A stretch of 64,000 nucleotides of DNA from Flavobacteriales bacterium (GTDB lineage Bacteria > Bacteroidota > Bacteroidia > Flavobacteriales_F > PHOS-HE28). Under the pieces are notes generated by a model. It saw only the letters and a list, made by a program, of their open reading frames with translations, did no database searches and had not been told where the DNA came from. Where the stretch lies: positions 72,948 to 136,947 of the forward strand of contig JADJVC010000001.1 in the NCBI GenBank assembly GCA_016710685.1, read 5' to 3'. The stretch's first letter is position 1; every line of letters begins with the position of its first letter. Shown one piece after another: positions 2,340 through 40,437 of this stretch. The position numbers and the translations under genes are program-made.

Positions 2340-3353
2340 ATGAACCGTAAAACCGCGCTGCGCGCATTTGCCTTGTTCCTTGGCCTCGCCGTGGCGTGGC
2401 CGTTCTTCATGCAGCGCGATGCCGAGGCCTGGGGCTTCTATGGCCACCGCCGCATTAACCGCATGGCCGTCTTCACCCTGCCGCCCGCCATGTTCGGCTT
2501 CTACAAGCGCCACATCGATTATGTCACTGACCATGCCACCGACCCCGACAGCCGTCGCTATGCCGTAGCAGCCGAGGCTCCGCGTCACTACATCGACATT
2601 GATCATTACGTGCCGGCAGGGGAGGATCCCTTCAAGGAAGTGCCCAAAAAATGGGACCTTGCCGTGCAGAAATTCACTGAGGATACCTTGCAAGCTTATG
2701 GTATCGTGCCATGGCACATTCCGGTGATGTACGGCAGGCTCGTGAATGCATTTAAACGCGGCAGCGTGGACCGGATCCTCTACTACAGCGCGGAAATCGG
2801 CCACTACATTGGAGATGCCCACGTGCCCCTCCACACCACGGAGAACTACAACGGTGACATGACCGGCCAGCACGGCATCCACGCATTTTGGGAAACGCGT
2901 ATTCCGGAACTAAATGCCGATAGTTACGACCACTTCACCGGCCGCGCCCAGTACATCGCCGACCCGTTGGAAGCCGCCTGGGACGCCGTGATCGGTAGCC
3001 ATGCAGCATTAGACACCGTGTTCAGCAAGGAAAAAGAACTGCAGGCCACCTTCCCGGAAAGCGAGAAGTATGTCTACGAACAACGCGGACGCGGCAGCGT
3101 GCAGCTCTACTCCAAAGAATTCACGGCAGCGTACGAGCAAAGCATGGGCGGCATGGTGGAGCGCCGCATGAATGCCGCCATCATATCAGTGGGCAGCTTT
3201 TGGTACAGCGCGTGGGTAGATGCCGGCCAACCCGACTTGGACCACTTCGACCAAAAGGACGTGAGCGACAGCTTGAAACAAGTGCTGAAAGCCGAAGACG
3301 AGGAGCGCAAGAATTCCTCTAAGGCGTTCGGTAGGGAGGAGCCGAGTGAGTGA
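2340..3353 (+). CDS. S1/P1 nuclease family protein (zinc-dependent phospholipase C/nuclease superfamily), secreted
   Basis: Signal peptide followed by a WGxxGH N-terminus (WGFYGHRRIN) and His/Asp-rich metal ligands. Confidence 0.6.
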   Translation: MNRKTALRAFALFLGLAVAWPFFMQRDAEAWGFYGHRRINRMAVFTLPPAMFGFYKRHIDYVTDHATDPDSRRYAVAAEAPRHYIDIDHYVPAGEDPFKEVPKKWDLAVQKFTEDTLQAYGIVPWHIPVMYGRLVNAFKRGSVDRILYYSAEIGHYIGDAHVPLHTTENYNGDMTGQHGIHAFWETRIPELNADSYDHFTGRAQYIADPLEAAWDAVIGSHAALDTVFSKEKELQATFPESEKYVYEQRGRGSVQLYSKEFTAAYEQSMGGMVERRMNAAIISVGSFWYSAWVDAGQPDLDHFDQKDVSDSLKQVLKAEDEERKNSSKAFGREEPSE

Positions 3354-3359
3354 ATGTAT
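3224..3359. repeat. direct repeat copy 1 (136 bp), comprising the last ~43 codons and stop of the S1/P1 nuclease gene
   Basis: Near-identical to 4626..4761 with about 3 mismatches. Confidence 0.85.
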
Positions 3360-3401: not shown

Positions 3402-4590
3402 CTACTTCAGGAAAAGCTTCCCGGTCAGCGACGTCCCGTACGCGTTATCGATCCGGTACACATAGCTTCCGGCCACAAGATTCTTCCGCAGGAATACGCA
3501 CGACGGACCGTGGAATTCCTGCTGGCTCACGACTCTGCCGCTCATGTCGCTTACCGTGAGTTTGTGCGTGGCCGGTGATGTTTCGCTCAATTCAATTGTG
3601 GCTTGGGATAACACCGGGTTGGGGTAAACCCGCACTGCAGTTCCTGTATTGGCCATGTCGTGCGTGCTCAAATTTGGATTTTCCAAAATGGTGCGAAATT
3701 GTTCGAATGTGCCAGCGTCCATCAACGTGTGGCGGTACCCTCCAGCCCAGGTGTCTACGCCTAGAACATTGTAATTCACGTTGTCCGTTACCAAAATGCC
3801 ACTGCCACTCTCCCCGGGAACTCCAACCCAATTCTGTACGCCTACATAATTGGCGATACCAGCACTGCTGAGCACCACAGGCGTGGAGAAATGGTAAAGT
3901 GTGTCCCCGTTGTAAATAATGCTCGGGTCACCTGCAACATTGTCTGCCGGATAGGAGAACTTGTGGACAATTTTATCGTTGAAATAGGTGGAATCCGTGG
4001 TAAAGCCTAAGCCGATCCATCCGAGTTCTTCACCTAACGGATGTTCCAGCTCAATCAAAGCATTATCTCGTTCCCACTCCAATGGTACGTAGTAACGGAC
4101 CGCGCGAGCTCACCCGTAAATACACCGGATTCCGTTGTCAAAAAACTGGATTAAAGTCTATCTGCCCGGTGCGCCATTCCCCGCTGAACATATCCCGCAA
4201 GCAATGGGATGCGGTAAGGACATGCCAAGGCCCAACTAACTGTCCAGAGCATCGCGCCCAACTCGAATCAGCTTCAATCCTCCTTAATGCGCCAACGGCC
4301 CGTATGGGGTAGTCTGTCAACGAATTCATACTTGCGGCGGTTGGTGGCAGTTGATTTCCCGGACCGAGGTAGCCCGCAGGGGCGGCCATATTATCCAACG
4401 TTATCAAACCGGGCAGTGTGCCGATGCCATTTGATAAAAAGCCCGAAACCGAATCCGTGACAGCCACGGGATGGATCGTGTCCACTTCCTCCGTTACCGG
4501 GTTGTAGACTAAAATGGTGTTGTCCTGTGCCAATAGCGACAGTTGAAAGAGAGCGAAACCAAAAGAAATCAGTGCGCAACGAATTTGCAT
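3402..4590 (-). pseudogene. trypsin-like (S1) serine peptidase with T9SS C-terminal sorting domain, disrupted
   Basis: Signal peptide plus TASHC (His) in ORF 4138..4590; Asp region, GESGSG (Ser) and Por/T9SS CTD in ORF 3402..4082, which is in another frame. A TGA after a T6 run at 4138 and a second in-frame TGA mean at least 2 lesions are needed to join the parts. Confidence 0.7.
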
Positions 4591-4625: not shown

Positions 4626-4761
4626 CGGCCAACCCGACTTGGACCACTTCGACCAAAAGGACGTGAGCGACAGCTTGAAACAAGTGCTGAAAGCCGAAGA
4701 CGAGGAGCGCAAGAATTCCTCCAAGGCGTTCGGGAGGGAGGAGCCGAGTGAGTGAGTGTAT
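4626..4761. repeat. direct repeat copy 2 (136 bp), an orphan duplicate of the nuclease gene 3' end
   Basis: Aligns to 3224..3359. Confidence 0.85.
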
Positions 4762-4789: not shown

Positions 4790-6238
4790 CTATTGCCGCG
4801 CCACTACCACACGTTGCAGTTGCCTGCTGCCGTTCTGCTCAAGCTCCAATAAGTACATGCCATCTGCAACGGCATTAAGGTCCATGCGGTGCACCGCAGC
4901 CATGGGCAGCACAGTTTTTACCAATGCGCCTTGCACTGAGTATAAGCGCAAGGTGCTGCCGGGTTGTACGCCGTCCAAGGAAATGTTCAGGAAGTCATTG
5001 GCAGGGTCGGGCCAAACACGGAACCGGCCTTCTTCATTTTCTGTGATCGCATTGAATTCGCCGATTTGGAAATCCGTGCTGTAGGTGGTGCCGGCGTAGT
5101 CCACCTGAAATTGCCAGTTGCCCGTTGGCCAAGTGGAGTTCACCACGTTGACCCATTGCGTATATGCCGTGGCGTAGTAGGGCCAAGGCGAAGTCCAGCT
5201 CCATTCTTCGAACAGCCCGTCGGGGCTGATGTTACGCATGGTATGAACGCTGGCCGAGTCGAGGTCGCGGTAGTAGATCTTGAAGATGATGGAGTCCCCG
5301 ACGTTGAAGCCGGTCTGCTCGTACGTGATCTCGGGCGTGGGACAATTGTAGTTGTCCAGTGTGGAATAGTGTGTGGAGATGTGGTTGACCTGCGGAATTG
5401 AATAGGCCGGTTGGACCGCCCACCAACTTTCGGTGCCATTCATGCTGTTGCACGGCCCCGCATAAGGGTCCACCACATTGTTGTTGGCGTCCATCACTTG
5501 AAAATGCAGGTGGGGATAGCTGCTGCTCCCACTGCTGCCGGCATTGCCGAGAAATTCCCCGGCCACTACCGTTTCGCCGATGCCTTTCGCGGTAACCGTG
5601 CCGGACTTCATGTGCCAATACCACGATTCGGAACCGTCGGAATGTTCCAGCACGATACCGTTCCAATCGGGACTTCCCGTGTTGCTGCACATCCGGTCGA
5701 AGTATCCGTCGCGCTTGTTGATGATCACACCGTCCGCTGCGGCGATGATCTCCATGTTCTCCTCGTCCATCTGTTTCCATCCATAGGGCCAGTAGACCAC
5801 GTCCGTTCCCGCATGGTTCCCGCTCGCCCAATCGTACGTGCGCGTGCCACAATCGTAATCCAGCACATGGTTGTTGGGCAACGGATCATGGTCCACCCCG
5901 AAACGCACGGCACTGTATCCGTAATCGTCAAACCCCGCGCGGGCCTGCGTTGGCCAGATGAACAGCGGGTGGTTACCGCCTCGGTCCACCTGCGGAAGTT
6001 CCGGGTGCTCGGCATGTACATGCTGGGCGTTCCGCTGATTTTCCAATGAAACCTCCTGCTGTTGTTCCAGCGAAATGCACGGTGCGTTTTCCACGGAAGG
6101 CGTGCCAAGGAAGCCTTTCCACCCGCTCGTACCGCTCGGTTCAAGGGGCTGAAGGTTTTGTGCCTCGGCGCCTTTCCATGCAGTGAGCACCAACAAAGTG
6201 CAGGCGGTCATGCGCCAAAATGCAGTTTTCCGTTTCAT
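4790..6238 (-). CDS. M23 family metallopeptidase with T9SS C-terminal sorting domain
   Basis: Signal peptide (MKRKTAFWRMTACTLLVLTAW); LytM/M23 motifs (HSDGSESWYWHM, GNAGSSGSSSYPHLHFQV); C-terminal CTD (LRLYSVQGALV..YLLELEQNG). The ORF's upstream ATG at 6295 is less likely. Confidence 0.75.
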   Translation of the reverse strand: MKRKTAFWRMTACTLLVLTAWKGAEAQNLQPLEPSGTSGWKGFLGTPSVENAPCISLEQQQEVSLENQRNAQHVHAEHPELPQVDRGGNHPLFIWPTQARAGFDDYGYSAVRFGVDHDPLPNNHVLDYDCGTRTYDWASGNHAGTDVVYWPYGWKQMDEENMEIIAAADGVIINKRDGYFDRMCSNTGSPDWNGIVLEHSDGSESWYWHMKSGTVTAKGIGETVVAGEFLGNAGSSGSSSYPHLHFQVMDANNNVVDPYAGPCNSMNGTESWWAVQPAYSIPQVNHISTHYSTLDNYNCPTPEITYEQTGFNVGDSIIFKIYYRDLDSASVHTMRNISPDGLFEEWSWTSPWPYYATAYTQWVNVVNSTWPTGNWQFQVDYAGTTYSTDFQIGEFNAITENEEGRFRVWPDPANDFLNISLDGVQPGSTLRLYSVQGALVKTVLPMAAVHRMDLNAVADGMYLLELEQNGSRQLQRVVVARQ

Positions 6239-6332
6239 TTCGGCGAGTTTTATCCGCCGAAAGTAGACTTTCTGATAGTCTCTGTCCATCCCCAAAAGGG
6301 GGGATGTGGTATTTTCTGCAAATCATTCCGGC

Positions 6333-8566: not shown

Positions 8567-9157
8567 ATGGCCGCCAAACCAACATTCGTCCCCGGTGATG
8601 AAGTTTCCTTCCTGAACGAGGTGGGCGGCGGCATGGTGTTGTCCCTGGTGGGCAAGGACCACGCCAAGGTACGTACGTTCGATGGCTTCGAGTTCGCAGT
8701 GCCGCTGAAAGAACTTGTGATGCGCGCCCAAAATTCCAGTTATGCCGTAAGCGACCACCACGCCCAGCTTCGCGCCAGCGACGACCGCATGATGGAGCGC
8801 ATTGAGCGCAACAAAGGTCGCGGTGGCTCATCGGCAAACGGCGGAACTGCCCCCAAACCCGTGGCCGACCCGCAAACGGTGGAGGTGGACTTGCATCTCC
8901 ACAAGTTGGTGGAGGACGAAAGCAAGTTGAGCGATGGTGAAAAACTCAGCTTTCAACTCGATTTTTTCGAGCGCCGCTTGAACACGGCCATCCGCGAACG
9001 CAAAAAGCGCGTCATAGTGATACACGGCGTGGGCGAAGGGATTCTGCGCGAAGAAGTGCGGAAGACCCTGCAGTTCTACGAAGGCGTCCGTTTCGATGAC
9101 GCCGACCCGCGCAAATACGGCTACGGCGCTACGGCTATTGAGATTTTGCATTATTGA
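8567..9157 (+). CDS. Smr/MutS2-type small endonuclease domain protein
   Basis: C-terminal Smr motif VIVIHGVGEGILREEV. Confidence 0.65.
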   Translation: MAAKPTFVPGDEVSFLNEVGGGMVLSLVGKDHAKVRTFDGFEFAVPLKELVMRAQNSSYAVSDHHAQLRASDDRMMERIERNKGRGGSSANGGTAPKPVADPQTVEVDLHLHKLVEDESKLSDGEKLSFQLDFFERRLNTAIRERKKRVIVIHGVGEGILREEVRKTLQFYEGVRFDDADPRKYGYGATAIEILHY

Positions 9158-9208
9158 GCGTTCGTTGCGCAGGGGCCCGAAGTGGAGACCTGCGAAGAAG
9201 TTCATTGA

Positions 9209-9643
9209 CATCCTGCGCACTGCTCCGCCGTTCTTTCCGCCGCATGGCGGGGAGGGAGGAAAGTCCGGGCAGCAAAGGGCACCGTGCTTCCTAACGGGAA
9301 GGGGCGCCGCTGGTGACGGTGGCGTTACGGAAAGTGCCACAGAAAGGGAAACCGCCGATCGTTGAAGTTGAAGTGAAGGCCCGCCTTCGCCAAGGCTTCG
9401 GCGAGGCAAGGATGAAAAGGTGGGGTAAGAGCCCACCAGTGCCCCGTGTGAGCGGGGCAGCTTGGTAAACCCCACGGGCTGAAAGACCAAATAAGCTGGA
9501 ACGCCTGCCGCAAGGCAGGCTAAGCGCGGCCCGCGTGATCCAGCGGGTAGGTCGATAGAGGCCGTGCGCGAGCACGGTCCCAGATAGATGGCGGAGGTCC
9601 GCCGCAAGGTGGATACAGGATCCGGCTTATAGGTGCGCAGGCT
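9209..9643 (+). ncRNA. rnpB: RNase P RNA, bacterial type A
   Basis: P4 strands GGAGGAAAGTCCGGGC and ACAGGATCCGGCTTAT; ACAGAAAGGGAAACCGCC, GGTAAGAGCCCACCAG and GGTAAACCCCAC conserved blocks; P1 pairing CCTGCGCAC/GTGCGCAGG. Confidence 0.85.
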
Positions 9644-9649
9644 TTTTTG

Positions 9650-9690
9650 CAAAGGCCCCGGCAGCAATGTTGGGGCCTTTTGCGATTTAA
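9650..9690 (+). terminator. rho-independent terminator after rnpB
   Basis: GGCCCC..GGGGCC hairpin followed by TTTTGCGATTT. Confidence 0.6.
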
Positions 9691-9857: not shown

Positions 9858-11192
9858 TTAATTCCTATTGAACACCAGAGGCTTTGCAGGTGTAGTCTCG
9901 CGGATGTGGATCATTCCATTGAACTGCTCTTTGGCGATAATCCGGTCGGAACATCTCTTGTAATTCATGAAGACTGCTCCGATATCATAGGTCCGCTGTG
10001 GCGTTGTAAAAATGGGGTCATCAGTAGCGGAGAGGTCCATGAAGAACGCTACTTCCTTGGTTGTGTCAAAAGAGTTCGTCAACGTGTTCCTTTTGGATGG
10101 CGGTACCGTGCATGCCATCCGTCCTTTGTACATGTGCTTCCGCCGGAACACGTATTTGTAAGCCGTGCCATAAAGCGTGTTAGGTCCCTTGAAGGCTTGG
10201 AAGGAACCTTCGCTGAAGGTGAACCCGACCGCGTAATACTTCTCGTTGTAATCGTCCTTCAAGTATCCACCCATGGGGCGCATCACGGAGTTGTTAACGA
10301 TGGACTGGTTGATATGTCCGTTGTGCGCCCAAATGAACATTTTCGACTTCCGCTCCTGCTGGATCTGATGGATGTTGGCGGCCATGCAACTGTCGCGGAA
10401 GTTGTAGCCGGGGGAGAGGTTCTTTACCGCTTGGTCGAAGTTGTCAGAGCAGTGTTGCATCGTCAGGAACCGCGCGCTGGACGAGCTGGTTCGAATGGCC
10501 TCTTCATTCGTATTCAGCCAAGCCTCAAGGAGGGAATGCATCTGGTTCAACGTGTCGGAATAGTGCTGGTCCTTGTCCTGAAGTTTGTGGTAAAGTTCCA
10601 GTTCGGAATGTTGGACCACCGGGCTGATGATGGCTTGCAGTGCTTCCTTGTTCCCGATGTTCAACTTGCCGATGGACCGGCTCAAATACTGGATGGGTGT
10701 ATAAAAATTCTGCATGTCAAAGCCGTAGAACAGAACCTTGTCATCCTGCGCCCTTCCGGCGTTAAAGTCCTTGATCCAAAGTACAAGCTCCTTCATCTCT
10801 GCGTTCTGCCAAGTCCAGAAATCGAAATGCCTTAGAACGGAATCGATGTCACCGATGCCGGAATCGACATAGTCATTGATGGAACTGCATCCTCCGAACG
10901 AGTCTTCGATCCCGAAAATCCTATATCCGTGGTTCTGCACCAAATATTTGAAGGACTCCCGCTTGATGTCGAAGAACTCCTTTGTCCCATGTGTTGCTTC
11001 CCCCATGCCGAACACCAGCACATCGTCAAAACCGGCTTTAGACCGGAAGAAGTCGAAATAGAGGTTGGGGGCGCTTTTTTCGAAAGTATAGATTGTTTCA
11101 TCGGAGGATCCGATCTGCACTACCTCTTGGGAATCGGCCTTGCCAAAAAGGCATGCCATGAATAAGATGGAAAGGGGAGGTGCGATGGTCAT
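9858..11192 (-). CDS. erythromycin esterase (Ere) family protein
   Basis: 444 aa; family-typical N-terminus (VFGMGEATHGTKEF); lower GC than the flanks. Confidence 0.7.
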   Translation of the reverse strand: MTIAPPLSILFMACLFGKADSQEVVQIGSSDETIYTFEKSAPNLYFDFFRSKAGFDDVLVFGMGEATHGTKEFFDIKRESFKYLVQNHGYRIFGIEDSFGGCSSINDYVDSGIGDIDSVLRHFDFWTWQNAEMKELVLWIKDFNAGRAQDDKVLFYGFDMQNFYTPIQYLSRSIGKLNIGNKEALQAIISPVVQHSELELYHKLQDKDQHYSDTLNQMHSLLEAWLNTNEEAIRTSSSSARFLTMQHCSDNFDQAVKNLSPGYNFRDSCMAANIHQIQQERKSKMFIWAHNGHINQSIVNNSVMRPMGGYLKDDYNEKYYAVGFTFSEGSFQAFKGPNTLYGTAYKYVFRRKHMYKGRMACTVPPSKRNTLTNSFDTTKEVAFFMDLSATDDPIFTTPQRTYDIGAVFMNYKRCSDRIIAKEQFNGMIHIRETTPAKPLVFNRN

Positions 11193-11223
11193 GCAGGTGT
11201 GAAGGCGAGTCTTGGGTATTGTT

Positions 11224-11297
11224 ACAGTTGGACAGACTTCGCAAGTCTACTCCCCATACCGATAATGCCCAATCACCTTGTAGCCGAACAAACAATC
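11224..11297. repeat. 'A' repeat copy 1: palindrome AGACTTCGCAAGTCT plus duplicated DUF1287 3' end (encodes ..YKVIGHYRYGE)
   Basis: 74 bp with about 5 mismatches to 11482..11555. Confidence 0.85.
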
Positions 11298-11362
11298 GCT
11301 CGGCCTCCCGCAAGTGTTCCAGCCTTCCACATCGTGCGTTTCCACTTGGCTGGATCCCCAAT

Positions 11363-11485
11363 CTCTACCGCAAGTCTTCCCAGCCAACCAGAGATGGGGT
11401 TCCAGCATACTTAGCTGGGGCGACTTGTGGCAGCTCAGTCGTAGCGTACGGTCGCGTACCTGGAAGTCTTCAGACTTCAACACAG
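11363..11485. repeat. 'B' repeat copy 1 (123 bp)
   Basis: About 80% identical to 13223..13345; ends in the GGAAGTCTTCAGACTTC palindrome. Confidence 0.85.
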
Positions 11486-11555
11486 TTGGACAGACTTCGC
11501 AAGTCTACATCCCATACCGATAATGCCCAATAACCTTGAAGCTGAACAAACAATC
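11482..11555. repeat. 'A' repeat copy 2, covering the true 3' end of the DUF1287 gene plus 23 bp downstream
   Basis: See copy 1. Confidence 0.85.
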
Positions 11556-11933
11556 CTCAAGCACTTGCCCCGCACCAATGTTGTGGACCATCAAATGCCT
11601 TTTGCCATCCGCAGCCTTCCGGTTTGACACAATGCCAATGTGCGTGATGCCGCCTCCCAAGTTCCAACAAACAAGGTCTCCCGGCAGGTAGGTTTTCGGA
11701 TCTTGGAGAAGGTCCAGCTTCCTGTAGGCGCGGATCACAACATCGGTACACACGCCCTTGCTTGCCGGCACATCACCGTTCGGGTAGTCCAGCTTGAAGT
11801 AGGATGGATCGTAATGCACCGTTTGCTTCGTGAGCACTTCCGCAGAATCTGCGAGCTGGGTGTAGAAGTCAGTTTGACCTGAAACCGGAATGAGGGATAG
11901 TGACCAAAGCGATAGGAAGAGCAGAATTCTCAT
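11505..11933 (-). CDS. DUF1287 domain-containing protein, secreted
   Basis: Signal peptide; VHYDPSY..PNGDVP..GVCTDVVIRAY motif typical of DUF1287. Confidence 0.65.
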   Translation of the reverse strand: MRILLFLSLWSLSLIPVSGQTDFYTQLADSAEVLTKQTVHYDPSYFKLDYPNGDVPASKGVCTDVVIRAYRKLDLLQDPKTYLPGDLVCWNLGGGITHIGIVSNRKAADGKRHLMVHNIGAGQVLEDCLFSFKVIGHYRYGM

Positions 11934-12022
11934 CGTGCAGGAGTTATGCTACCCCCCTGTGTAATGGGTAACGGGCAAGGACACCGGAGCGTATTCACTC
12001 AAGTCCCGGTGTTGTCTTACCC

Positions 12023-13174
12023 CTAAAGCACAATGAACCTGATCTGTTCTGATGCATGATCCGTGATCACGTTCATCAGGTACACCCCGCTGGGTAGATC
12101 TTGAACATCAATGTTCGTCGTTCGCGCCTCAACACTTCCACTGGAGACCTTTGCACCAGTAACCGACAGGATCTCATAGGTTGTTCGCTCGCTGATCCGC
12201 GCAACGCTGAGGGTAATGCTTCCTTCACAAGGACTGGGGTATAGCTGATAGGAGACCTTGCTATCTAGAGCCATGGCATTGATACCGGTAGAGATATCCG
12301 GGCACGTGACATTGGTGAGGTAGTTGGACGCCACGGACGGAGTGTCCAGCAACAACGGGCAATAGCACGCATCGTCAATCAGGAAATGCTTCAGCCAGGA
12401 GAGGCCGATCTTGCCGACATATCCTTGGCCTCCTGTTGGACTGTTGGCTACTTCATGATCTCCATTCTCAATTTCAAAGATCAACTTGCTCGTTGTTTCC
12501 GGTGTCAGGTTGTAATGGATATCGGCATGTTGTGCCGGTGGTGCAATTACATCGTTCTCCGCACTGAAGATCAATACAGGGACAGGGTGGTCCAGTTCAG
12601 CAGCGGTGGTCTGGCTATCCAGCCAAGGACAGAGCGCCATAACGGCCTTTAAGGTCGGGTCTGCGGTCGCGGCAAGTTGTGCGCCGCCGCCACCCATGGA
12701 CCAACCACCAACTGCCATCCTATCGAGGTCCAGGTTGCCGACGAGCGGAGAACCGGATCTCGTGTTCTCCTCCGTTATGGTTACGATCGCATCCAGGAGG
12801 GCATCTCTTCTATCGTAAGGATCATCAAAGAGGCTATTGGTGCCTAAGGTCATGGCCACAATGCCATGCGAGGCCAAGAACGGACCCCAATCTTGGATCG
12901 ATGATTGAAAGGATATGAATCCGGGAACCATCGCAATGCTTGCAAAAGGGGGTGTTGCGTCCGTTGGGTAGTAGAGGGTGGCCCCCGAATAGTCCGGGCC
13001 ATTCCTCAAGCCGTTGGACTCGGTGAGGATACCTACGCTGTAAATTCCCGGGTCGGTAATGGAGTCCAGTGTCAACGGATCGCAGCTCTGTGCTTTGCTG
13101 GAACCAGCAAACATGGACAGACAAAGGAGCAGGTACATTCCTTTTGCGTGGACACACTTCTGGGTTCTGTTCAT
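12023..13174 (-). CDS. PETase-like polyesterase / dienelactone hydrolase family esterase with T9SS C-terminal sorting domain
   Basis: Collinear with IsPETase/cutinase-like enzymes: YYPTDA..IAMVPGF.SFQSSI.WGPFLASHGIVAMT, nucleophile elbow GWSMGGGG, FSAENDVIAP (Asp), FEIENGDHEVANS (His). C-terminal Por CTD (LYPSPCEGSITLSV..GVYLMNV). Alternative start at 13138. Confidence 0.8.
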   Translation of the reverse strand: MNRTQKCVHAKGMYLLLCLSMFAGSSKAQSCDPLTLDSITDPGIYSVGILTESNGLRNGPDYSGATLYYPTDATPPFASIAMVPGFISFQSSIQDWGPFLASHGIVAMTLGTNSLFDDPYDRRDALLDAIVTITEENTRSGSPLVGNLDLDRMAVGGWSMGGGGAQLAATADPTLKAVMALCPWLDSQTTAAELDHPVPVLIFSAENDVIAPPAQHADIHYNLTPETTSKLIFEIENGDHEVANSPTGGQGYVGKIGLSWLKHFLIDDACYCPLLLDTPSVASNYLTNVTCPDISTGINAMALDSKVSYQLYPSPCEGSITLSVARISERTTYEILSVTGAKVSSGSVEARTTNIDVQDLPSGVYLMNVITDHASEQIRFIVL

Positions 13175-13222
13175 TGCTCTTTGTTGAATGGGTCGAAGAT
13201 ATCGAATGCAAACGCGACCATG

Positions 13223-13345
13223 CTCTACCGCACGTCTTCCCAGCCAACCCGATCTGGAGTTCCAACAAACAGAGCTGGGGCGACTTGTGGCACCTCAGTC
13301 TTGATGTACGGTTGTTCTGCTGGAAGTCTTCAGACTTCAACACAG
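13223..13345. repeat. 'B' repeat copy 2 (123 bp), 48 bp upstream of the PETase-like gene
   Basis: Aligns to 11363..11485. Confidence 0.85.
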
Positions 13346-13532
13346 ACCGGTAACTCAGCAATAGCTTTGGATTTCAGAAGCCCACAAGTCGCTCCGGCCT
13401 GTACTTGGCAAGAACACACTTTATTACTGGGCCGGGAAGGCTTTAGGGAGGGCTGGAGAGGGTGGGTAACATTGTGCTCCCGACAAGCAACCCGTTCAAC
13501 GGAACATACTGCACCGGAGGAGGAAATCTCGT

Positions 13533-14441
13533 TCAAGCAACGGCTTTGATCACCGCGCCGATATGGTTCATGGCTTTGCCGTAGGTCTCTATGCCATGTC
13601 CCACCTGATGGAAGACCTTCACATCCTTAAGCGTCTTGATGTGCTTTTTCGCATTTTCAATGGACCTTTGGAACGGAAAGAGCAGGTCCTTATCCCCTTC
13701 AAGTAGGTAGGTGTCCACTTTAACCTCTCCCAACTGACCGTTCATATAATATGGCTTTTGCGTCTTGTCCTTATAGCGACTGATGGCGAACAACTCATAG
13801 TCGACCAACAAGTTCTCGCTCGCTGTGGACAGGGTGTGTTCCGGTTTTGAGAATACTGCTTTGTCCAGGAATTTTCGCACGTTTGCTGCAGTTGGTTGGA
13901 TGATCGGGAGCAGATTATAATAGAGGTTTTTCGGAGTCATTGAAAACGGCTGCAAGCAGCCGGGGTTCAAGAGGAAGGCGGCTTTCACCTTTTCAGGCTG
14001 TACAATACCAAGCTTCATGCAGATCAGCCCACCGAACGATGCGCCTGCAACAAAAGTCTTCTCGACCCCTAAATGGTCCAATATTTCAGCTGCCCAAATT
14101 CCGTAATCCAATGAATGAATGTCCGGCGTGTCCCCATGGCTCAGATTGGGCAGTCCGTTGGTCTCCACCATAAAGATGCGCAATTTGCTGTTCAAGTTGT
14201 CCAGCCCTCTATCCAGGTCCCAGATCAATGAGGTCGTTCGTGCACCAGGAAAAATAACGAGCGTTTCAACATCGGGCTCCGCCGTGTTCAGGCCCCAAAC
14301 ATGTGTCTTGCCAAGGGAGGACGGGACTTCAAAGCGTTCGTAGTTTCTCGCGTTATGTGCCTCCAGCTGTTCCACCCATTTTTCAAAGGAGCGAACGTCC
14401 GCTTTCTCATCCTTGAACTTCGATTTGCTCTTAATCTTCAT
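13533..14441 (-). CDS. alpha/beta hydrolase fold protein
   Basis: 302 aa; GASFGG nucleophile elbow, C-terminal His; lower GC. Confidence 0.65.
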   Translation of the reverse strand: MKIKSKSKFKDEKADVRSFEKWVEQLEAHNARNYERFEVPSSLGKTHVWGLNTAEPDVETLVIFPGARTTSLIWDLDRGLDNLNSKLRIFMVETNGLPNLSHGDTPDIHSLDYGIWAAEILDHLGVEKTFVAGASFGGLICMKLGIVQPEKVKAAFLLNPGCLQPFSMTPKNLYYNLLPIIQPTAANVRKFLDKAVFSKPEHTLSTASENLLVDYELFAISRYKDKTQKPYYMNGQLGEVKVDTYLLEGDKDLLFPFQRSIENAKKHIKTLKDVKVFHQVGHGIETYGKAMNHIGAVIKAVA

Positions 14442-14598
14442 TTGCGCTCCTCGTCTGGTTCGGTTTCCTTCAAAGCTGCGAATTTATCGGCCATCTCAAT
14501 TAGTGCATTTACCAATTGGTGTCAGTACCAATGAAACCTAGCAATTTAATGCTGTGCCCAGTTTCTCCGCCGTTCTGGTGGAAGACACTGCGAGGAAC

Positions 14599-17166
14599 TC
14601 AATACAACAACTCATTCCCACCCCCAAAAGGCTTCCGCAGCTCGTACTTCAGATCGTGCAGCACACTCGCCTTCACGTTGATCCGGAACGTAAAGCTTTT
14701 CCGCACGCCCAATGGGATCACGTTCGCGTTGAATTCCCAGCAGTGCAGGTCCCAGTAGAGGTTGAGCGAGGTGGGCGTCCATTCGCCGGCTTCCATGTCG
14801 TAGCCGCTGCTGAAGCCGAGTTTCCAGTATTTGAGGATGTTGAGGTCGCCGCTGAAGAGCACGCTTTGCGTTTGCTGTTCGGTGTATTCGGCTACTTGGT
14901 ACGCCCGCGCCATGGACCAGCTGTAGTTGACGCGCACATGCCACGGGATGCTGAAATTCACCTTCGCGCCTTTGCTGGGGTCGGCTTCCGCTACGACTTG
15001 GTCGTCGCTGCTGCTTCCCGCGAGGGGCTTGCCGTAGCGCTTGCTTTGCAGCTCGAAGCCCAGGGCGGCGTTGGCGTTCGTTAAATGCGCGAGCGCGCCG
15101 TCCGCCGTGCGTGCGGAGCGGTTGATGCGCTGGCCCAACGCGTTGGTGGCATACGGGTCGAAGGCTGCGGCAACGTTCAGGTCCAGGAAGTTGAACAGGC
15201 GCGTGCGGGCAGCGGTGCTCACGGGCGACCAGCGCACGGAATCCTTCAGCAGGTCGTAGTTGGCGTTGATGCCTAAGTAGTCCAGCAATTTCAGCTTTTT
15301 CATTACCGCTTCACCTTTGGCATCGGGCTTTTTGGACAGCACTTTTCCTTCGAGGCTTTGCACAAGGCCTAGTGAAACAAGCCCGCTGGCGTTGGGGTTT
15401 GGCGTGCCGTAAATGCCGATGTCGTAGGGCGAATAGGAACTCTCCGCTCCGCTTGGGCCGTAGGGGCCGAAGATGCGCGTGTCGTTTCCCGGCAGATAGG
15501 TGAGCGCGGCGCTGGGCGTAATGACGTGGCGGATCTGTTTCAGCCTTCCGCCGCGGAACACGTACATGCCGTAAAGCTTGCTGGTGGCGGTGGCGCCGAT
15601 GCTCCAGTCGAAGGTGTTGTTGATGCCGGCAACGGTGTCGGTGAGCAGCGTGTCCGTGGCCTGCACGTAGGTTTTTCGCAGGGCATCGAAGTAGGTGCGG
15701 TCGGTGATGTTGAGCTGCGGATTCAGCGTGAAGGCGCGCGTTTTGAACGAGGTGCTCACCGTGCCGGTATGCCGCACACCGTTGCGCATGCGGTCCAGCA
15801 AATTCGGGATGTTGGCAATGCTGATCTGGTCTTCCGTGGTGTTGAGCCGGTTCTCGAAAACGCTGCTCCACGTTACGCCGATGTTCTCGTACCACTTCGG
15901 CGCACCGGCCGCAGGCTTGCCGAACCACGTGCCGGGGAAGAAGCGCTGCACGTTGAAATTCACCGAGGGCAGCGTTACGTCGAAGGTGCGGTTAAGCGTG
16001 TTCTGGCTGTGCCGCGCGCCCACGCTCAGGCTGTACGGTTTGCCCGTCCACAGGTGGTTCCAGGTGATGTTGCTCTGGAAGGTGTTGCTCAAATAATCCT
16101 GCGTGGTGCTGTTGAAGTTGTTGGTGAAATTCTGGCTGGAACCCGCGTTCACGCTGGCGTTAAAGCGGTCGGTGAGGCTGGCTTTGGGGTCGAGCAAATG
16201 GTTCCAGCGGATAAAAAACGTACGCTGCTCGCTGAAATCCGGGTATTCCTGAATGCTGTTGAGCTTGTCGCTGTACTGCAGGTCCATGGAGCCGCTGAAG
16301 CGGTAGCGCTGCTTGTAGCGCGTTACGGAGCGCAGGCCCCAACTGCCCCGGCTGTAGATGTCCGCCGTGAGCTGCTCGTCGAAGTTGTCGCCCAGGGGCA
16401 GATAATAGCCGCCGTTCAGCAGGTACAAGCCGTATTGGTCGCTGGTGCCCCAACTGGGAATGAGCAGGCCCGCGCTGCCGCCCTTGTGGTTGGGGAAGAG
16501 GCCGAAAGGCACCACCAACGGCGTGGGAATTTTGCCGATCTTCATGTACGCGGGCCCCGCTACGATCTTGTCGTCCGGTATCACGATCATGCGGCTTACG
16601 GCGAACTGGTAGTGGGGGTGGGGCCGGTCGCACGTGGTGAGCCTGCCGCCCAAGCTGTGTATTTCGCCGTTCGCGTGGCGCTTGCTTACGCGGGCCAGCG
16701 CATAGAGCTGCGATTCCTGCGTGCGCACTTCCTTGATCAAGCCTTCCTTGGTGTCGAAATTGTAGCGGATGCTGTCCGCCGTTACGTCTTGACCGCCTTG
16801 CGTGAACGTGGGCGCGCCCGCTGGGTTTCCGGTGCTGTCCAAGGTGCCGAATGCCTGCACTTCGTTCTTCGCCAAGTCCAGCAAAATGCGGTCCGCCTGC
16901 AGCACCACATCCCCGTATTCCACCTTGGCGGCACCAAAGAGGTACACGGTTTGCAAGGCCACGTCGTATCGCATGCTGTCGCGCGCACTGTACTTCACTT
17001 CATCCCCCAAGCCTTGCGCCTGTGCGGACATCCCCGCCATTCCTAACAATACCGTGATGAAAATGCACCTCGCCACGCTGGAAAGCCTCACCACGGTGGG
17101 GCTACCTTCGCGCTCGCCGCTGAAAAGGGCGGCACGGATCGCGGTTATGCGGGGTGAAAAAATCAT
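14599..17166 (-). CDS. lptD: LPS-assembly protein LptD-like (OstA N-terminal domain plus large beta-barrel)
   Basis: 855 aa; OstA-like N-terminus (YDVALQTVYLFGAAKVEYGDVVLQADRILLD); typical Bacteroidota LptD length. Probable true start near 17040 (MAGMSAQAQG). Confidence 0.7.
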   Translation of the reverse strand: MIFSPRITAIRAALFSGEREGSPTVVRLSSVARCIFITVLLGMAGMSAQAQGLGDEVKYSARDSMRYDVALQTVYLFGAAKVEYGDVVLQADRILLDLAKNEVQAFGTLDSTGNPAGAPTFTQGGQDVTADSIRYNFDTKEGLIKEVRTQESQLYALARVSKRHANGEIHSLGGRLTTCDRPHPHYQFAVSRMIVIPDDKIVAGPAYMKIGKIPTPLVVPFGLFPNHKGGSAGLLIPSWGTSDQYGLYLLNGGYYLPLGDNFDEQLTADIYSRGSWGLRSVTRYKQRYRFSGSMDLQYSDKLNSIQEYPDFSEQRTFFIRWNHLLDPKASLTDRFNASVNAGSSQNFTNNFNSTTQDYLSNTFQSNITWNHLWTGKPYSLSVGARHSQNTLNRTFDVTLPSVNFNVQRFFPGTWFGKPAAGAPKWYENIGVTWSSVFENRLNTTEDQISIANIPNLLDRMRNGVRHTGTVSTSFKTRAFTLNPQLNITDRTYFDALRKTYVQATDTLLTDTVAGINNTFDWSIGATATSKLYGMYVFRGGRLKQIRHVITPSAALTYLPGNDTRIFGPYGPSGAESSYSPYDIGIYGTPNPNASGLVSLGLVQSLEGKVLSKKPDAKGEAVMKKLKLLDYLGINANYDLLKDSVRWSPVSTAARTRLFNFLDLNVAAAFDPYATNALGQRINRSARTADGALAHLTNANAALGFELQSKRYGKPLAGSSSDDQVVAEADPSKGAKVNFSIPWHVRVNYSWSMARAYQVAEYTEQQTQSVLFSGDLNILKYWKLGFSSGYDMEAGEWTPTSLNLYWDLHCWEFNANVIPLGVRKSFTFRINVKASVLHDLKYELRKPFGGGNELLY

Positions 17167-30405: not shown

Positions 30406-33400
30406 TTGGCATTGAATTGGTCAACAAATACCCGACAGCAGATGCAACTCCATAACCCCCTGAAGCGTTTCGCATTTTGTCTATTGCTCATTGCCCCGCT
30501 GCATGGACTCTTCGCCCAAGGCTGTACCAACAGCATTAAAAACCCCAATGGCTTTACCACGCCGGACACGTTGGGAAACGTGAAGGTCATCTCGAACTGC
30601 TCCTACACGAACGAGTATTCCGCAGTGGGGCCGAGTATTGCCGGACGGAGCTATAGATTCACGCTGAGCGGAAGCAGCGCGTACATTACCGTGCATGAGG
30701 GCACATCAGACGGGCCCATTATCGCGTATGGCCCTTCTCCAGTCACAGCGACGGCCACAGTGTCGGACTTTCTGTTCGCTCATTGGACATGGGATTCAGA
30801 ATGCACCTTTGTAGTGGGTTGCAAAACCTCCAAGGTAAAATTGCTGCTGGACTGCACCCCGCCGGCGGCCACGGTAACTGTAGAGGACAGTTGCAGCATC
30901 AACGCATTCTTTCTTAGTGTGAACATTTCGGACTACGGCGATGGCACCGGCTCGGATATCATACATACCGTGGACAACGGAACACCGGACACCCTGTTTG
31001 CCGCGCCGCTCGGCGTTTCTTTAATTGGTCCTTTCCCCCTGGGCAATCGGTGGATGTTACCGTAACGCACAGCAGCAACCCCTTGTGCAATGCCCAATTC
31101 AACGAAAACCACTCGAACGAGTGCCCCGAGCCCATCAGTTGCGGCGAGCCAACGCTAGTGGACAGCTATTGCTTCGGCCTCCATGACTACCATGAATGGC
31201 GTTGGCAGAACACCGACCCCGGCGGCACCGTGGCCTTGTTGTTCAATTCCGGCACGCTCTACGCGCCTGGATCCACCCAGCTTACCATTTATGACGGGAA
31301 CGACAATACCGGAGCGATCTTGTTCCAAAACCAAGTAGCAATGGACCTGTCCGACACGCTAATTCAAACCACGGGTCCGAACATGTACATGGAGTTGGAC
31401 GCGTTGCCCAACTATTTCGGCAGCTGTCAAGATGGTCTTTATGTCCCGTGGAACTGGACCGTGGGCTGCCTTGATTGTATTCCTGCAACTGCGAAGTATG
31501 AAGTGGTCACCGACTGTAACGCACAGACGTTCCAAGTGGACGTGCACCTCACCGACTTGGGAAGCCAGGCCCTGGTGCAATTGACCAATGATGCCGGTGC
31601 GCCCATGTTAACGGCCACCACACCGGGCACCTACACGGTGGGGCCGTTCCCGAATGACGCACCAGTAATTATTTCCATTCCGAACAACATCAATAGCCTG
31701 TGCAGCACGCATTCACCGGTGCTCACCAATCCGCTTTGCCCCACCTATATTCCGTGCGGTGCTCCCCCGGTGGACATGGCCTATTGCTACCACAACTTCG
31801 ACGAGCACTCCTGGCATTGGCAGTCCAGCGACGAAATGAGTTCCTTATCCATCGCCTTTTCGGCAGGCACGATTCAAAGTGCGATATGGGACAGCTTGTT
31901 CATTTATAACGCTGCGGATGATTCGGATCCGAGTACGCTGCTGTACATGCACACCATGATAAGCCAAGAGGATCTGGCCGGCTTACAATTTACTGCCGGT
32001 AGTGGCCATATGTTCATGAAGGTCATCTCTGATTGGATCGGTAGCTGTGACCAAGGAAGTGAGACCGAATGGGCCTGGCAGGTCGCCTGCTTGGATTGCA
32101 TCCAACCGCAGGCTGACTTCACGGTAAACACCGATTGCGACGCACAGCAGTTTACCGTGGACGTGCATGTGGGCGTGCTGGGTACCGACAGCACGTTGGA
32201 CATCACCAACGATTATGATCCACTAATGGTCACCACGGCCACGGACACCGGCGTATACACCATCGGGCCATTCCCGATCACCACTGAGGTTGTATTCACG
32301 TTGGTGAATGATTTCAACAGCCTTTGCAACTTGGTTTCCGATGTGGTCACCAATCCGCTTTGCCCCAGTTTTATCAATTGTGGCGAGCCAGCACTCAACC
32401 TGAGCTACTGCTATGGCAACTATGATCTCCATACTTGGCATTGGCAGAACACCATTCCCACCGGTTCCCTTACGGTGAACTTTCTTTCAGGAACAATAGG
32501 CGCACCAGGTACTTTCGGTGATAATCTGAAAATTTACGATGGGGTTGACAACACCGCACCGTTACTGGCCCAAAACTCGTCCCCACTGAACCTCGCCGGG
32601 GTTACAGTTCAATCCACCGGCCCGGACATGTACATGGAGTTGAATTCCTTGAACAGTCAAGTCCTGAGTTGCGCCGATGGACAAAATGCCCCATGGGATT
32701 GGACCGTGGGCTGTAATGATTGTGCGCCGGCCACGGCAACTTTTGCCGTATTGCTGGAATGCGATTCCAACAGGTACTATGTGGATGTCGACATCACAGC
32801 AATGGGTAGTGCTCCGGTACTCGAGATCATCAACGACAATGGCGCGCCACCTGTCAACGCCAACAGCACCGGTACCTATTCCGTGGGGCCGTTCGACAAT
32901 GGCACCAATACCGTGGTGACTGTACAGAATAATTTGAACCACGTGTGCAATTTGCTGTCGGCAGTGCTAACGGACGCGCTCTGCCCGGACACCTTGGAAT
33001 GTGAAGATGCTCCGGTTACAGAGACCTACTGCTATACAAACCACGACGATCACACATGGCATTGGTATTGCGCGTGCGGCAATAACCTGCTATTGGATTT
33101 TTCCGCAGGAACCATCGAGAGCTACTCATACGATCCTTTTTGGATTTACGATGGGCCGGACAATAACGCGCCAGTATTGTATCACAACTTCGGCGGTACG
33201 GACGATATTGACCTGTCCACCTTGTCGTTCCTATCCACGGGAAGCGACCTATACATGGAAATGTCATCCGATTATGTCGCGAGCTGCGAAGACGGACTAC
33301 AGGATGAATGGGTATGGACGGTGGGCTGCGATGGTACCACCGTGGTCAATGAAGGTGGAGCAGTGGATTTCGTGATGTACCCCAACCCGGCAACAAACGA

Positions 33401-33611
33401 ACTCTACTTACGCCTACCCGGCGATACAAATGGAACTACGGAGATCAAGATCCTGGATGCGGCTGGCCGGATAGTCCTTCTGGACAAATTCACTGCCAAA
33501 GGAGCGAACCTGAACACCTTCGACTTACATGGCTTGCAAAATGGGACCTACAGTGTGATAGTAACCGCCTCGAACTGGGTGAAAGCCCAGCGTTTGCAGG
33601 TAATCCATTGA
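30406..33611 (+). CDS. large Cys-rich tandem-repeat surface protein with T9SS C-terminal sorting domain (frameshifted at ~31036)
   Basis: Signal peptide; 5 repeats of ~210 aa (CGEP..YCY..H.W.WQ ... SC.DG..W.WTVGC.DC ... TDC.AQ.F.VDVH ... GPFP ... NSLCN...TNPLCP); Por CTD at the end. ORFs 30406..31065 and 31050..33611 join if the ccccc run at 31034-31038 gains 1 base. Confidence 0.7.
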
Positions 33612-39453: not shown

Positions 39454-40437
39454 ATGAAACACATTACACTTCTGGCCGCGATGGCCGTAACTACCGCAGC
39501 GGTCGCACAGCGCGAAGCTGCTCCGATGGGCCATTTCACTGCCCCGCACTTCCAGTTTAACGCGGACCGTACTCCCACGGACACTTTGGTGCCTGCCAGC
39601 TTTATGGATGCAGGGTCCACATTGACCGTGTACGGTGTAACCGATGGTGGTTATGTCGCTGGGACGAACGCATATGGCGATTTGGCCAAAGTGCAAAATT
39701 TCGAAACCACGGGTGCCGTCTTTGTTGAACAGATCCTGCTCGGTTTTGGCGCGAAAGACGAGAATGGCAGCCCGAACTCCTTGCTGCATGTCCGTGTATA
39801 CGGATTGGACGGTCCTGGGACCAACAGCCTTGGTGACGCGACCAATGCGCCCAGCACCATCATGGCCAACGTGGATATCCCTGTGAGTTCCTGCGACACC
39901 GCTGGCATCACCGTAGCAACCTTCAATCCCGCTGTTGCTGTCAACGGAGCCTTCGGAGCCGGTATTGACTTCACCGCTCTGGCAGCAGGTGTTGAACTTG
40001 GATTGATCACTACCACCGATGGAGACATGGGTACCGCGGACGACCAGAACTGGGAGCTGTGGAGCGATAACACTTGGTTCACGCTCACCGCAGCTTGGCC
40101 ATTGAACCTTGACATGTTAATCTGGCCAGTGATCGGTGACGGCATCGCCGGCATCAACGACAACGCCACCGTGAACAACATGCGCATGAGCTTCATCGGC
40201 AGCAACCCTGCGGACAAGAACATCACTGTTGCTTACGAAATGCTTCAGGCTGCCAATGCACGTTTGATCGTGCTCGACGGCAAAGGCGCGAAGGTGGTGG
40301 ATCAGAAATTTGGCCAAACCGCTACCGGCATGCACCAGTCCGAGTTGAACGTGAGCGAGTGGAGCAATGGCACGTACTACGTGTCCATCCTCGCCAACGG
40401 CAACCCTATCACCAAGAAATTGGTTGTGCAGCACTAA
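39454..40437 (+). CDS. hypothetical secreted protein with T9SS C-terminal sorting domain
   Basis: Signal peptide; CTD (ITVAYEMLQAANARLIVLD..GTYYVSIL). Confidence 0.6.
   Translation: MKHITLLAAMAVTTAAVAQREAAPMGHFTAPHFQFNADRTPTDTLVPASFMDAGSTLTVYGVTDGGYVAGTNAYGDLAKVQNFETTGAVFVEQILLGFGAKDENGSPNSLLHVRVYGLDGPGTNSLGDATNAPSTIMANVDIPVSSCDTAGITVATFNPAVAVNGAFGAGIDFTALAAGVELGLITTTDGDMGTADDQNWELWSDNTWFTLTAAWPLNLDMLIWPVIGDGIAGINDNATVNNMRMSFIGSNPADKNITVAYEMLQAANARLIVLDGKGAKVVDQKFGQTATGMHQSELNVSEWSNGTYYVSILANGNPITKKLVVQH

Follow-up and report, generated by a model that had tools for sequence, protein, structure and literature searches.

An intact gene for a predicted exported PETase-like serine esterase, in a clade adjacent to PET27 and PET30, from a Flavobacteriales genome

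A 64-kb stretch of DNA from a Flavobacteriales bacterium (the whole of the DNA analyzed, here called the window) carries a gene whose product combines a domain similar to polyethylene terephthalate (PET) hydrolases with a type IX secretion system (T9SS) sorting domain. This raises the question of what kind of enzyme the gene encodes, how the enzyme leaves the cell, and whether its likeness to the PETases extends to activity on PET itself. In the open reading frame (ORF) listing of the window, exactly one ORF matches the interval of the gene on the minus strand (Table 1), and its translation contains all of the motifs by which the original prediction had recognized a PETase-like polyesterase, namely LYYPTDATPPFASIAMVPGFISFQSSIQDWGPFLASHG, GGWSMGGGG, ENDVIAP, and FEIENGDHEVANS. 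We found that the product of the gene is very probably an exported serine carboxylesterase/polyesterase of the same type as bacteroidetal PET27 and PET30. It is an intact, ordinary member of a large, already described family, in a clade adjacent to PET27 and PET30.

The catalytic region matches the Pfam family PF12740 (PETase) with 192.6 bits (cut-off 28, E = 1.1e-56) over residues 56-283; this match and those of the sorting domain given below lie well beyond chance. The best sequence match in the PDB is 7pzj_A (PET30; E = 2.9e-112), which spans residues 14-369 and thus includes the sorting domain, followed by 7cwq, PET2, variants of IsPETase, Ple628/629, and PE-H (E of about 1e-55 to 1e-47). 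An AlphaFold2 model built from a 77-sequence alignment had a mean predicted local distance difference test (pLDDT) score of 86, with most of the catalytic core above 90, residues 295-307 below 50, and the C-terminal domain at about 80-90. In a Foldseek search of this model against the PDB, the top match was again 7pzj (root-mean-square deviation 1.5 Å, target TM-score 0.90, 57% identity); dozens of IsPETase structures came next (about 2.0 Å, target TM-score 0.89), and PET2, PET44, Ple629, PE-H-like enzymes, and LCC followed lower in the list (with IsPETase, these span 1.8-3.2 Å at a Foldseek probability of 1.00). The reach of the 7pzj sequence match through the C-terminal domain, together with the fit of the model, bears out the PET27/PET30-type architecture that had been proposed for this protein. 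The protein had also been described as collinear with IsPETase, and this holds because the BLASTP alignment (42% identity over 219 amino acids, E = 1e-44) has only four gap positions; the IsPETase comparison string cited with that claim, FLEINGGSHSCANS, is correct, the IsPETase sequence used being that of PDB 6qgc_A over all 290 residues. The protein scored 147.1 bits against NF051441, the equivalog model of the bis(2-hydroxyethyl) terephthalate (BHET) hydrolase BdeA, below its cut-off of 520, so that it is related to BdeA and not its equivalog.

Mapping of the catalytic triad on a structure model, which had been suggested as a check, gave a consistent picture: Ser159 lies between strand 148-158 and helix 160-171, as in a nucleophile elbow, Asp208 comes after strand 200-205, and each triad residue, including His240, follows the expected strand of the model. 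All three residues are invariant in 77 of 77 relatives. As judged from sequence and model, Ser159 in the G-W-S-M-G elbow would be activated by His240 and Asp208 to attack ester carbonyls, with the backbone NH groups of Phe86 and Met160 as the predicted oxyanion hole and Phe86 and Trp184 as a putative aromatic clamp around a substrate ring or acyl chain. Phe86, Met160, and Trp184 constitute a Phe-Met-Trp substrate-binding triplet; among 152 relatives, the triplet was YMW in 69, FMW in 63, and FMY in 11, and Trp158, Met160, and Trp184 were invariant or nearly so among the 77. The residue directly after the catalytic His, Glu241 in the window protein, is Glu in 2 of the 77 relatives and Ser in 39.

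Two described classes of PETase were considered and rejected. Type III (halophilic) PETases have a G-H-S-Q-G pentapeptide, with Thr/Tyr replacing the aromatic clamp (PMC13396203), whereas the window protein has GWSMG and the Phe86/Trp184 clamp. In the type IIb scheme of Joo et al. 2018, as summarized in PMC8767016 and PMC13396203, two disulfides are present and Trp159, Ser238, and Tyr87 line the cleft. The window protein has the Trp159 equivalent (Trp158), but Ala205 and Val242 stand at the positions of the IsPETase active-site disulfide Cys203-Cys239, which is therefore absent, and Glu and Phe replace Ser238 and Tyr87. Otherwise, it shares with IsPETase (Ideonella/Piscinibacter sakaiensis, 6EQE/6QGC, type IIb) the same fold, a GWSMG motif with Trp at X1, and equivalents of Met161, Trp185, and Ile208, the last being Ile210 in the window protein. 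The two differ further in that the window protein adds an N-terminal Cys, a CxC motif, and the T9SS sorting domain, and in that its host belongs to the Bacteroidota and that of IsPETase to the Pseudomonadota. The alignment to IsPETase is ungapped from the catalytic His to the following Gly-Lys, which in the classification of Joo et al. is reportedly a sign of the longer type II loop and would suggest such a loop in the window protein.

PET27 (WP_111881932, Aequorivita sp. CIP111184) and PET30 (WP_039353427, from Kaistella jeonii, the esterase in 7PZJ) were the first PET-active enzymes from Bacteroidetes, and both carry a PorC/T9SS domain (Zhang et al. 2022, PMC8767016). Taking the sequences of PET27, PET28, PET29, and PET30 from their genomes (loci L019, L051, L017, and L059), we found that the window protein was 50.8% identical to PET27 over its full length and 62.2% over the catalytic domain, with values of 51.5% and 57.6% for PET30, 52.9% and 63.4% for PET29, and 37% and 41% for IsPETase. 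Overall identity between the window protein and PET27-30 was 50-53%, compared with 61-89% among those four. In a neighbor-joining tree of catalytic domains (no bootstrap), the window protein belonged to a clade that is sister to the Aequorivita/Kaistella cluster and has members from uncultured Flavobacteriales, Chitinophagales, Saprospiraceae, Crocinitomicaceae, and UBA1494 (58-88% identity). By these sequence comparisons, the window protein falls in the wider PET27/PET30 lineage but outside the characterized Aequorivita/Kaistella subcluster. The family is large: 1306 proteins were found at E < 1e-20, most with the same two-domain architecture, and there are at least 485 loci among species-representative genomes. 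The close relatives are all labeled as metagenome-assembled genomes (MAGs) of Flavobacteriales bacterium.

Enzymes of the PET27/PET30 type have a Phe-Met-(Trp/Tyr/Ala) triplet and one C-terminal disulfide, with none by the active site (PMC8767016). The window protein resembles PET30 in the succession of signal peptide, PETase-like domain, linker, and seven-strand PorC/T9SS type A domain, as well as in the triad of Ser, Asp, and His, GWSMG, a Phe where IsPETase has Tyr87, the cysteines of the C-terminal disulfide, the N-terminal Cys with CxC, and the absence of the active-site disulfide (Gly195/Val232 in PET30, Ala205/Val242 here). It differs from PET30 in having Trp184, Ile210, and Glu241 where PET30 has Tyr178, Thr200, and Ser231, in a loop after Trp184 that is four residues longer, in its triplet (F-M-Y in PET30), and in belonging to a different clade. 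With PET27, it has in common an identical Phe-Met-Trp triplet, the same architecture, and, again, no active-site disulfide; however, the sorting domains are strongly diverged (about 19% identity), PET27 has Thr and Ser at the positions of Ile210 and Glu241, and PET27 comes from a marine/Antarctic Flavobacteriaceae host rather than from an uncultured Flavobacteriales lineage of 57% GC. The flavobacterial PET-active enzymes PET93 and PET94, of dienelactone hydrolase (DLH) type, are likewise from Bacteroidota, secreted, equipped with a Ser-Asp-His triad, and slow and promiscuous in PET turnover, but they have a Tyr-Met-Trp triplet and no PorC/T9SS domain and fall outside the PET27/PET30 cluster (PMC13188925), whereas the window protein has PorC and groups with PET27 and PET30.

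The window protein has four cysteines, Cys31, Cys270, Cys272, and Cys291, that are all invariant in 77 of 77 relatives, and all four are present in 139 of 152. In PET30, the C262-C285 disulfide was observed in the crystal (PMC8767016), and by alignment Cys272-Cys291 corresponds to it and is predicted to form the same bond. The N-terminal Cys and the CxC Cys are kept throughout the bacteroidetal clade, including PET27-30, and are absent from IsPETase; because 7PZJ lacks PET30 residues 1-27, the N-terminal Cys has never been seen in a structure. We infer that Cys31 and Cys270 may pair in a second disulfide. The joint loss of cysteines was uninformative as proof of this pairing, as so many relatives have all four and the exceptions are mostly fragments.

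How the protein would leave the cell can be read from its two ends. The C-terminal domain scored above cut-off with both PF18962 Por_Secre_tail (41.1 bits, cut-off 27, residues 311-381) and the NCBIfam model TIGR04183 for the T9SS type A sorting domain (35.5 bits, cut-off 23), so that, with PF12740, the earlier description of a PETase-like enzyme joined to a Por/T9SS domain holds. Seven strands are present in the modeled domain, and the PorC domains of PET27 and PET30 are described as "7x beta" (PMC8767016). Pro313 and Pro315 (in LYPSP) and Tyr365 (in GVY) are invariant in the family, giving LYP(N/S)P and G-x-Y signatures. The original prediction had the T9SS domain replacing the secretion signal; instead, a classical Sec signal peptide is kept and the sorting domain is added to it. 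The signal peptide has a basic n-region (R3, K6, K11), a hydrophobic core at residues 13-24, and an SKA/QS c-region, "AQxC" is the family consensus at the cleavage site, and no lipobox was seen in it by inspection. For PET27 and PET30, SignalP predicts cleavage at the equivalent position, 23-24 (PMC8767016). Met1 is the sole start kept in an 88% identical orthologue, in which Thr13 and Leu21 occur; some database entries start at Met13 or Met21 (371 and 363 amino acids).

Cargo of the T9SS needs both an N-terminal Sec signal and a C-terminal sorting domain, and can be set free or stay attached to the surface of the cell; examples that bear TIGR04183 are the gingipains of Porphyromonas gingivalis and secreted glycoside hydrolases of Flavobacterium johnsoniae. 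The window protein resembles T9SS type A cargo, as described by de Diego et al. 2016 and cited in PMC8767016, in its Sec signal, flexible linker, and C-terminal beta-sandwich of about 70-80 amino acids, and in the presence of several cargo genes per genome segment. It differs in its passenger, which is a PETase-like esterase, whereas other passengers are proteases, glycosidases, or adhesins. The window contains five T9SS cargo genes if the PETase-like gene and one frameshifted gene are included, and because four other ORFs carry Por_Secre_tail (Table 1), the organism clearly makes cargo for the T9SS and appears to use it. We therefore consider it likely that the window protein is exported by this system. 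The steps would be that Sec translocates the precursor by way of its 28-residue signal peptide, which signal peptidase I removes between Ala28 and Gln29; that the catalytic domain folds in the periplasm, stabilized by the Cys272-Cys291 disulfide and possibly also by a Cys31-Cys270 staple; and that the sorting domain is then cut off within the flexible linker, residues 295-307, the likely region of removal in view of how the T9SS generally works. The surface location named in the original prediction is a possible fate of the mature enzyme, the other being release.

Table 1. Positions of the PETase-like gene, its parts, and other genes within the 64-kb window
Feature	Position	Strand	Remarks
Complete coding sequence, PETase-like serine esterase with T9SS sorting domain	12023..13174	-	383 amino acids, ATG start, TAG stop
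Sec signal peptide (signal peptidase I type), residues 1-28	13091..13174	-	Predicted cleavage Ala28/Gln29; by inspection
Cys31 codon	13082-13084	-	Third residue of predicted mature protein
Catalytic alpha/beta-hydrolase (PETase-like / polyesterase-lipase-cutinase) domain, residues 29-294	12293..13090	-	pLDDT mostly >90
Phe86 codon, predicted oxyanion-hole backbone and one aromatic-clamp face	12917..12919	-	IsPETase Tyr87, PET30 Phe80
Ser159 codon, predicted nucleophile in G-W-S-M-G	12698..12700	-	IsPETase Ser160, PET30 Ser153
Met160 codon	12695-12697	-	Triplet with Phe86 and Trp184
Trp184 codon	12623-12625	-	Triplet with Phe86 and Met160
Asp208 codon, predicted catalytic acid	12551..12553	-	IsPETase Asp206, PET30 Asp198
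His240 codon, predicted catalytic base	12455..12457	-	IsPETase His237, PET30 His230
C-terminal cysteine cluster Cys270, Cys272, Cys291	12302..12367	-	Cys272-Cys291 corresponds to PET30 disulfide C262-C285
Cys270 codon	12365-12367	-	In CxC motif of last helix
Flexible linker, residues 295-307	12254..12292	-	pLDDT <50; between two Pfam domains
T9SS type A C-terminal sorting domain (Por_Secre_tail), residues 308-383	12026..12253	-	Seven-strand beta-sandwich
ORF ending in Por_Secre_tail, part of frameshifted cargo gene	3402-4082	-	
ORF ending in Por_Secre_tail, M23 peptidase	4790-6295	-	Intact
ORF ending in Por_Secre_tail, internalin-like repeats	31050-33611	+	853 amino acids, intact
ORF ending in Por_Secre_tail, no other domain	39454-40437	+	327 amino acids, intact
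Ere-like (erythromycin-esterase-family) gene	9858-11192		
DUF1287 gene	11505-11933	-	
Alpha/beta hydrolase gene	13533-14441	-	

What the enzyme would act on can be approached through its relatives. PET27-30 all hydrolyze p-nitrophenyl (pNP) C6 and C10 esters, tributyrin, Impranil DLN, polycaprolactone, and BHET, and deletion of PorC leaves activity unchanged; terephthalic acid was released from PET foil by PET27 and PET30 only, at levels 4.7-fold and about 253-fold below IsPETase, respectively, and PET28 and PET29 were negative on PET foil (PMC8767016). As all four are active on polyesters, general polyesterase activity is a safe inference for the window protein, and by this analogy we strongly expect it to be an esterase or polyesterase. 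Its likely substrates would be short- to medium-chain pNP esters, tributyrin, polycaprolactone, polyester-polyurethane, and BHET, and in its habitat it probably acts on an insoluble polyester or lipidic ester of natural origin. Measurable hydrolysis of PET film is a more doubtful matter, which we regard as possible without expecting it; any such activity would be slow and promiscuous.

Some findings weigh against reading the gene as an exported polyesterase with activity on PET. The nearest characterized relatives are only about 51% identical overall, Glu241, rare in the family (2/77), is predicted to put a negative charge at the cleft, and PET-film activity cannot be inferred from homology, as PET29, with 89% identity to PET27 and no difference from it at the key positions tabulated, is PET-negative. 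None of the scanned ORFs of the 64-kb window is a T9SS machinery gene (gldKLMN, sprA, porV or porU type). Scans for sigma-70 promoters and terminators gave matches at or below the shuffle expectation, and no promoter was identified; the Bacteroidota -7 motif TAnnTTTG is missing from the region upstream of the gene on the same strand, and the window as a whole is depleted in it. In a further reading, which we think slightly more probable than not, the protein is a secreted esterase whose targets are lipids or aliphatic polyesters of natural origin (fragments of cutin or suberin, polyhydroxyalkanoate-like material, acylglycerols) and which has no detectable activity on PET film, and the label "PETase" indicates family membership only. 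It differs from the favored explanation on the PET question alone, and refines it. It agrees with the failure of PET28 and PET29 on PET foil at 74-89% identity to PET27, with the loss of the IsPETase active-site disulfide (Ala205/Val242) and the Glu in place of Ser238, and with a host lineage known from uncultured MAGs and metagenome contigs only, and thus without a link to plastic. Set against it are the Phe86/Trp184 clamp, Trp158, Met160, and Ile210, which are all present, and a configuration like that of PET27, the more active of the two bacteroidetal enzymes. At the other extreme, the window protein could represent a distinct structural subtype spread through non-marine or uncultured Bacteroidota (Flavobacteriales, Chitinophagales, Saprospiraceae), with a type II-like cleft (Trp at X1, Phe/Trp clamp, Ile210), no active-site disulfide, two remote disulfides including an N-terminal Cys31-Cys270 staple from the third mature residue to the last helix, and PET depolymerization at or above the PET27 level; we consider this unlikely.

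Classical dienelactone hydrolases have a Cys nucleophile, and the Ser in GWSMG, like the export signals, makes it highly improbable that the protein is such an enzyme (EC 3.1.1.45) acting on small lactones in aromatic catabolism. That idea comes from the JGI name of the 99% identical cluster, "dienelactone hydrolase," and from a weak match to PF01738 (22.5 bits, cut-off 21, residues 149-227), to be compared with the 192.6 bits of PF12740; further, no catabolic genes are conserved alongside homologues in 80 genomes, and the PET-active "DLH" enzymes PET93/94 are without PorC and outside the PET27/30 cluster (PMC13188925). We also weighed whether the C-terminal beta-sandwich might be a substrate-binding or cell-attachment module of a protein that is periplasmic or otherwise exported. 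The lack of machinery genes in the scanned ORFs would fit this, although 64 kb is too small a stretch for their absence to carry meaning, and so would the faster evolution of the sorting domain (ratio of nonsynonymous to synonymous substitution rates, dN/dS, 0.29-0.42, compared with 0.17 in the catalytic domain) and the unaffected catalysis of PET30 after PorC deletion (PMC8767016). We found no direct demonstration in published accounts (PMC8767016, PMC13188925) that the T9SS secretes PET27 or PET30. But both curated sorting-domain models score above cut-off, the LYP(N/S)P and G-x-Y signatures are invariant, and the domain is terminal, after a disordered linker, as in four more ORFs of the window that end alike, which is usual in T9SS-bearing Bacteroidota; a periplasmic location or another export route is therefore very unlikely. 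It is scarcely credible, finally, that this copy of the gene has lost or is losing its function within an islet prone to recombination, even though it lies in a 4-kb stretch of low GC (0.515 compared with about 0.575) with intergenic repeats and population indels, and two genes nearby are damaged (a 51-amino-acid deletion in DUF1287 and the frameshifted sorting-domain cargo gene). The ORF has its full length, none of the catalytic or structural residues is lost, and in an 88% identical sister genome the PETase-like gene is the one conserved occupant of its slot. Relative to 88% and 85% orthologues, dN/dS was 0.25-0.27 overall and 0.17-0.18 in the catalytic domain, and the ORF is under purifying selection.

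An exact-sequence look-up found no database record for the window protein, and we used P0001, a 99% variant, as a stand-in for exact-sequence comparisons. The catalytic domain is 100% identical to that of P0001, with four differences, all in the sorting domain; contigs of several metagenomes, at least 14 in all, carry P0001, as does the NCBI MAG GCA_049663405.1. GenBank already holds 99%-identical proteins under generic names. The practical gain is one of annotation: "PETase-like polyesterase, T9SS cargo" can stand in for "dienelactone hydrolase" (the JGI/IMG name) or "T9SS type A sorting domain-containing protein." No concept is changed, as the architecture, fold, mechanism, and global distribution have been in the literature since 2022 and public databases already contain near-identical sequences, and the biotechnological interest claimed originally is modest, given the weak and unpredictable PET activity in the lineage and the abundance of homologues. 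If expressed and active, the enzyme would be the first characterized member of the sister clade to PET27/PET30, and its combination of a PET27-like Phe-Met-Trp triplet with an IsPETase-like Ile210 could offer a point of comparison for why close homologues differ in PET activity. The gene also adds evidence that T9SS-exported PETase-like esterases are widespread in Bacteroidota beyond marine Flavobacteriaceae.

The PETase-like gene sits between a gene for an LptD_2-family outer-membrane protein (14599-17166) and the RNase P RNA/Smr, within a four-hydrolase stretch (10000-14000) that has a GC content of about 0.515 in a window that is otherwise about 0.575 (overall about 57%). In the 88% sister MAG, the same LptD_2-to-Smr slot holds genes for a CHU_C protein, a sigma factor, and a beta-lactamase-family protein instead, and only the PETase-like gene is shared. 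The stretch looks like a variable, lineage-specific islet with repeats and indels. An operon or functional link with the neighboring hydrolases was rejected, as tblastn found none of them near a homologue in 80 species-level genomes; because no neighbor recurs near homologues and the slot content differs, the PETase-like gene stands alone. On the 99% contig L003, the alpha/beta hydrolase gene is missing: a 1.29-kb segment (13306-14598) is absent, and the LptD_2 gene directly adjoins the PETase-like gene. In some other lineages, at homologue loci L008 (9172-10746; 71%) and L009/L010 (9219-12485; 58%), a GMC oxidoreductase gene comes after the PETase-like gene, and the Crocinitomicaceae lineage also has a second esterase (Abhydrolase_3) and an acyl-ACP thioesterase, which do not occur in the window. 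This set hints at a hydroxy-fatty-acid/polyester utilization cluster in those lineages. Neither the GMC oxidoreductase nor the second esterase qualifies as a conserved partner, since they recur only in one Crocinitomicaceae lineage (L015) among the 80 genomes.

The intergenic regions of the islet contain repeats. A palindromic element of about 125-128 nucleotides, D1, is present in two copies (11358-11485 and 13218-13345) that are 83% identical and lie upstream of the Ere-like and PETase-like genes on the coding strand; each combines a GAAGTC-TGAA-GACTTC hairpin with a long imperfect hairpin. We rejected D1 as a shared leader or riboswitch, as it has no Rfam match and is absent from the 88% sister genome. 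Only one of its copies folded better than shuffled sequences (z = -3.6, compared with -1.0 for the other), and D1 is probably a lineage-specific palindromic repeat similar to repetitive extragenic palindromic (REP) elements or miniature inverted-repeat transposable elements (MITEs). The boundary of the segment missing from L003, at 13306, falls inside a D1 copy, suggesting repeat-associated gain or loss of the hydrolase gene. A 74-nucleotide direct repeat (93% identical) occurs at 11224-11297 and 11482-11555, the second copy being the 3' end of the DUF1287 gene with the start of D1. The first copy is found only in the window and on contig L003, and changes what lies upstream of the Ere-like gene and possibly also where that gene starts (444 amino acids here, compared with calls of 473 elsewhere). 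The DUF1287 gene itself has an in-frame deletion of 153 base pairs (51 amino acids) near 11714, leaving 142 amino acids compared with 193 in five 97-99% identical contigs; the junction shows GACCT microhomology, and the deletion may reflect either variation in the population or a collapse in the assembly. Directly downstream of the islet lies a full-length class A RNase P RNA (9212-9645, plus strand, 255 bits), and because it overlaps the minus-strand ORF at 8828-9667, that ORF is spurious.

Further from the PETase-like gene, a 395-amino-acid T9SS cargo gene (3402-4589, minus strand) has a faint trypsin-like match and a Por_Secre_tail domain. It is frameshifted near 4145 by one extra T, which makes a T5 run into T6 relative to near-identical contigs, and may be either a strain pseudogene or the product of a homopolymer sequencing error. 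A 136-nucleotide repeat (97.8% identical) occurs at 3224-3359 and 4626-4761, one copy being the 3' end of an S1-P1-nuclease-like gene (2340-3353, plus strand) and the other situated between a pair of T9SS cargo genes, so that here, too, the 3' end of a gene has been duplicated into an intergenic region.

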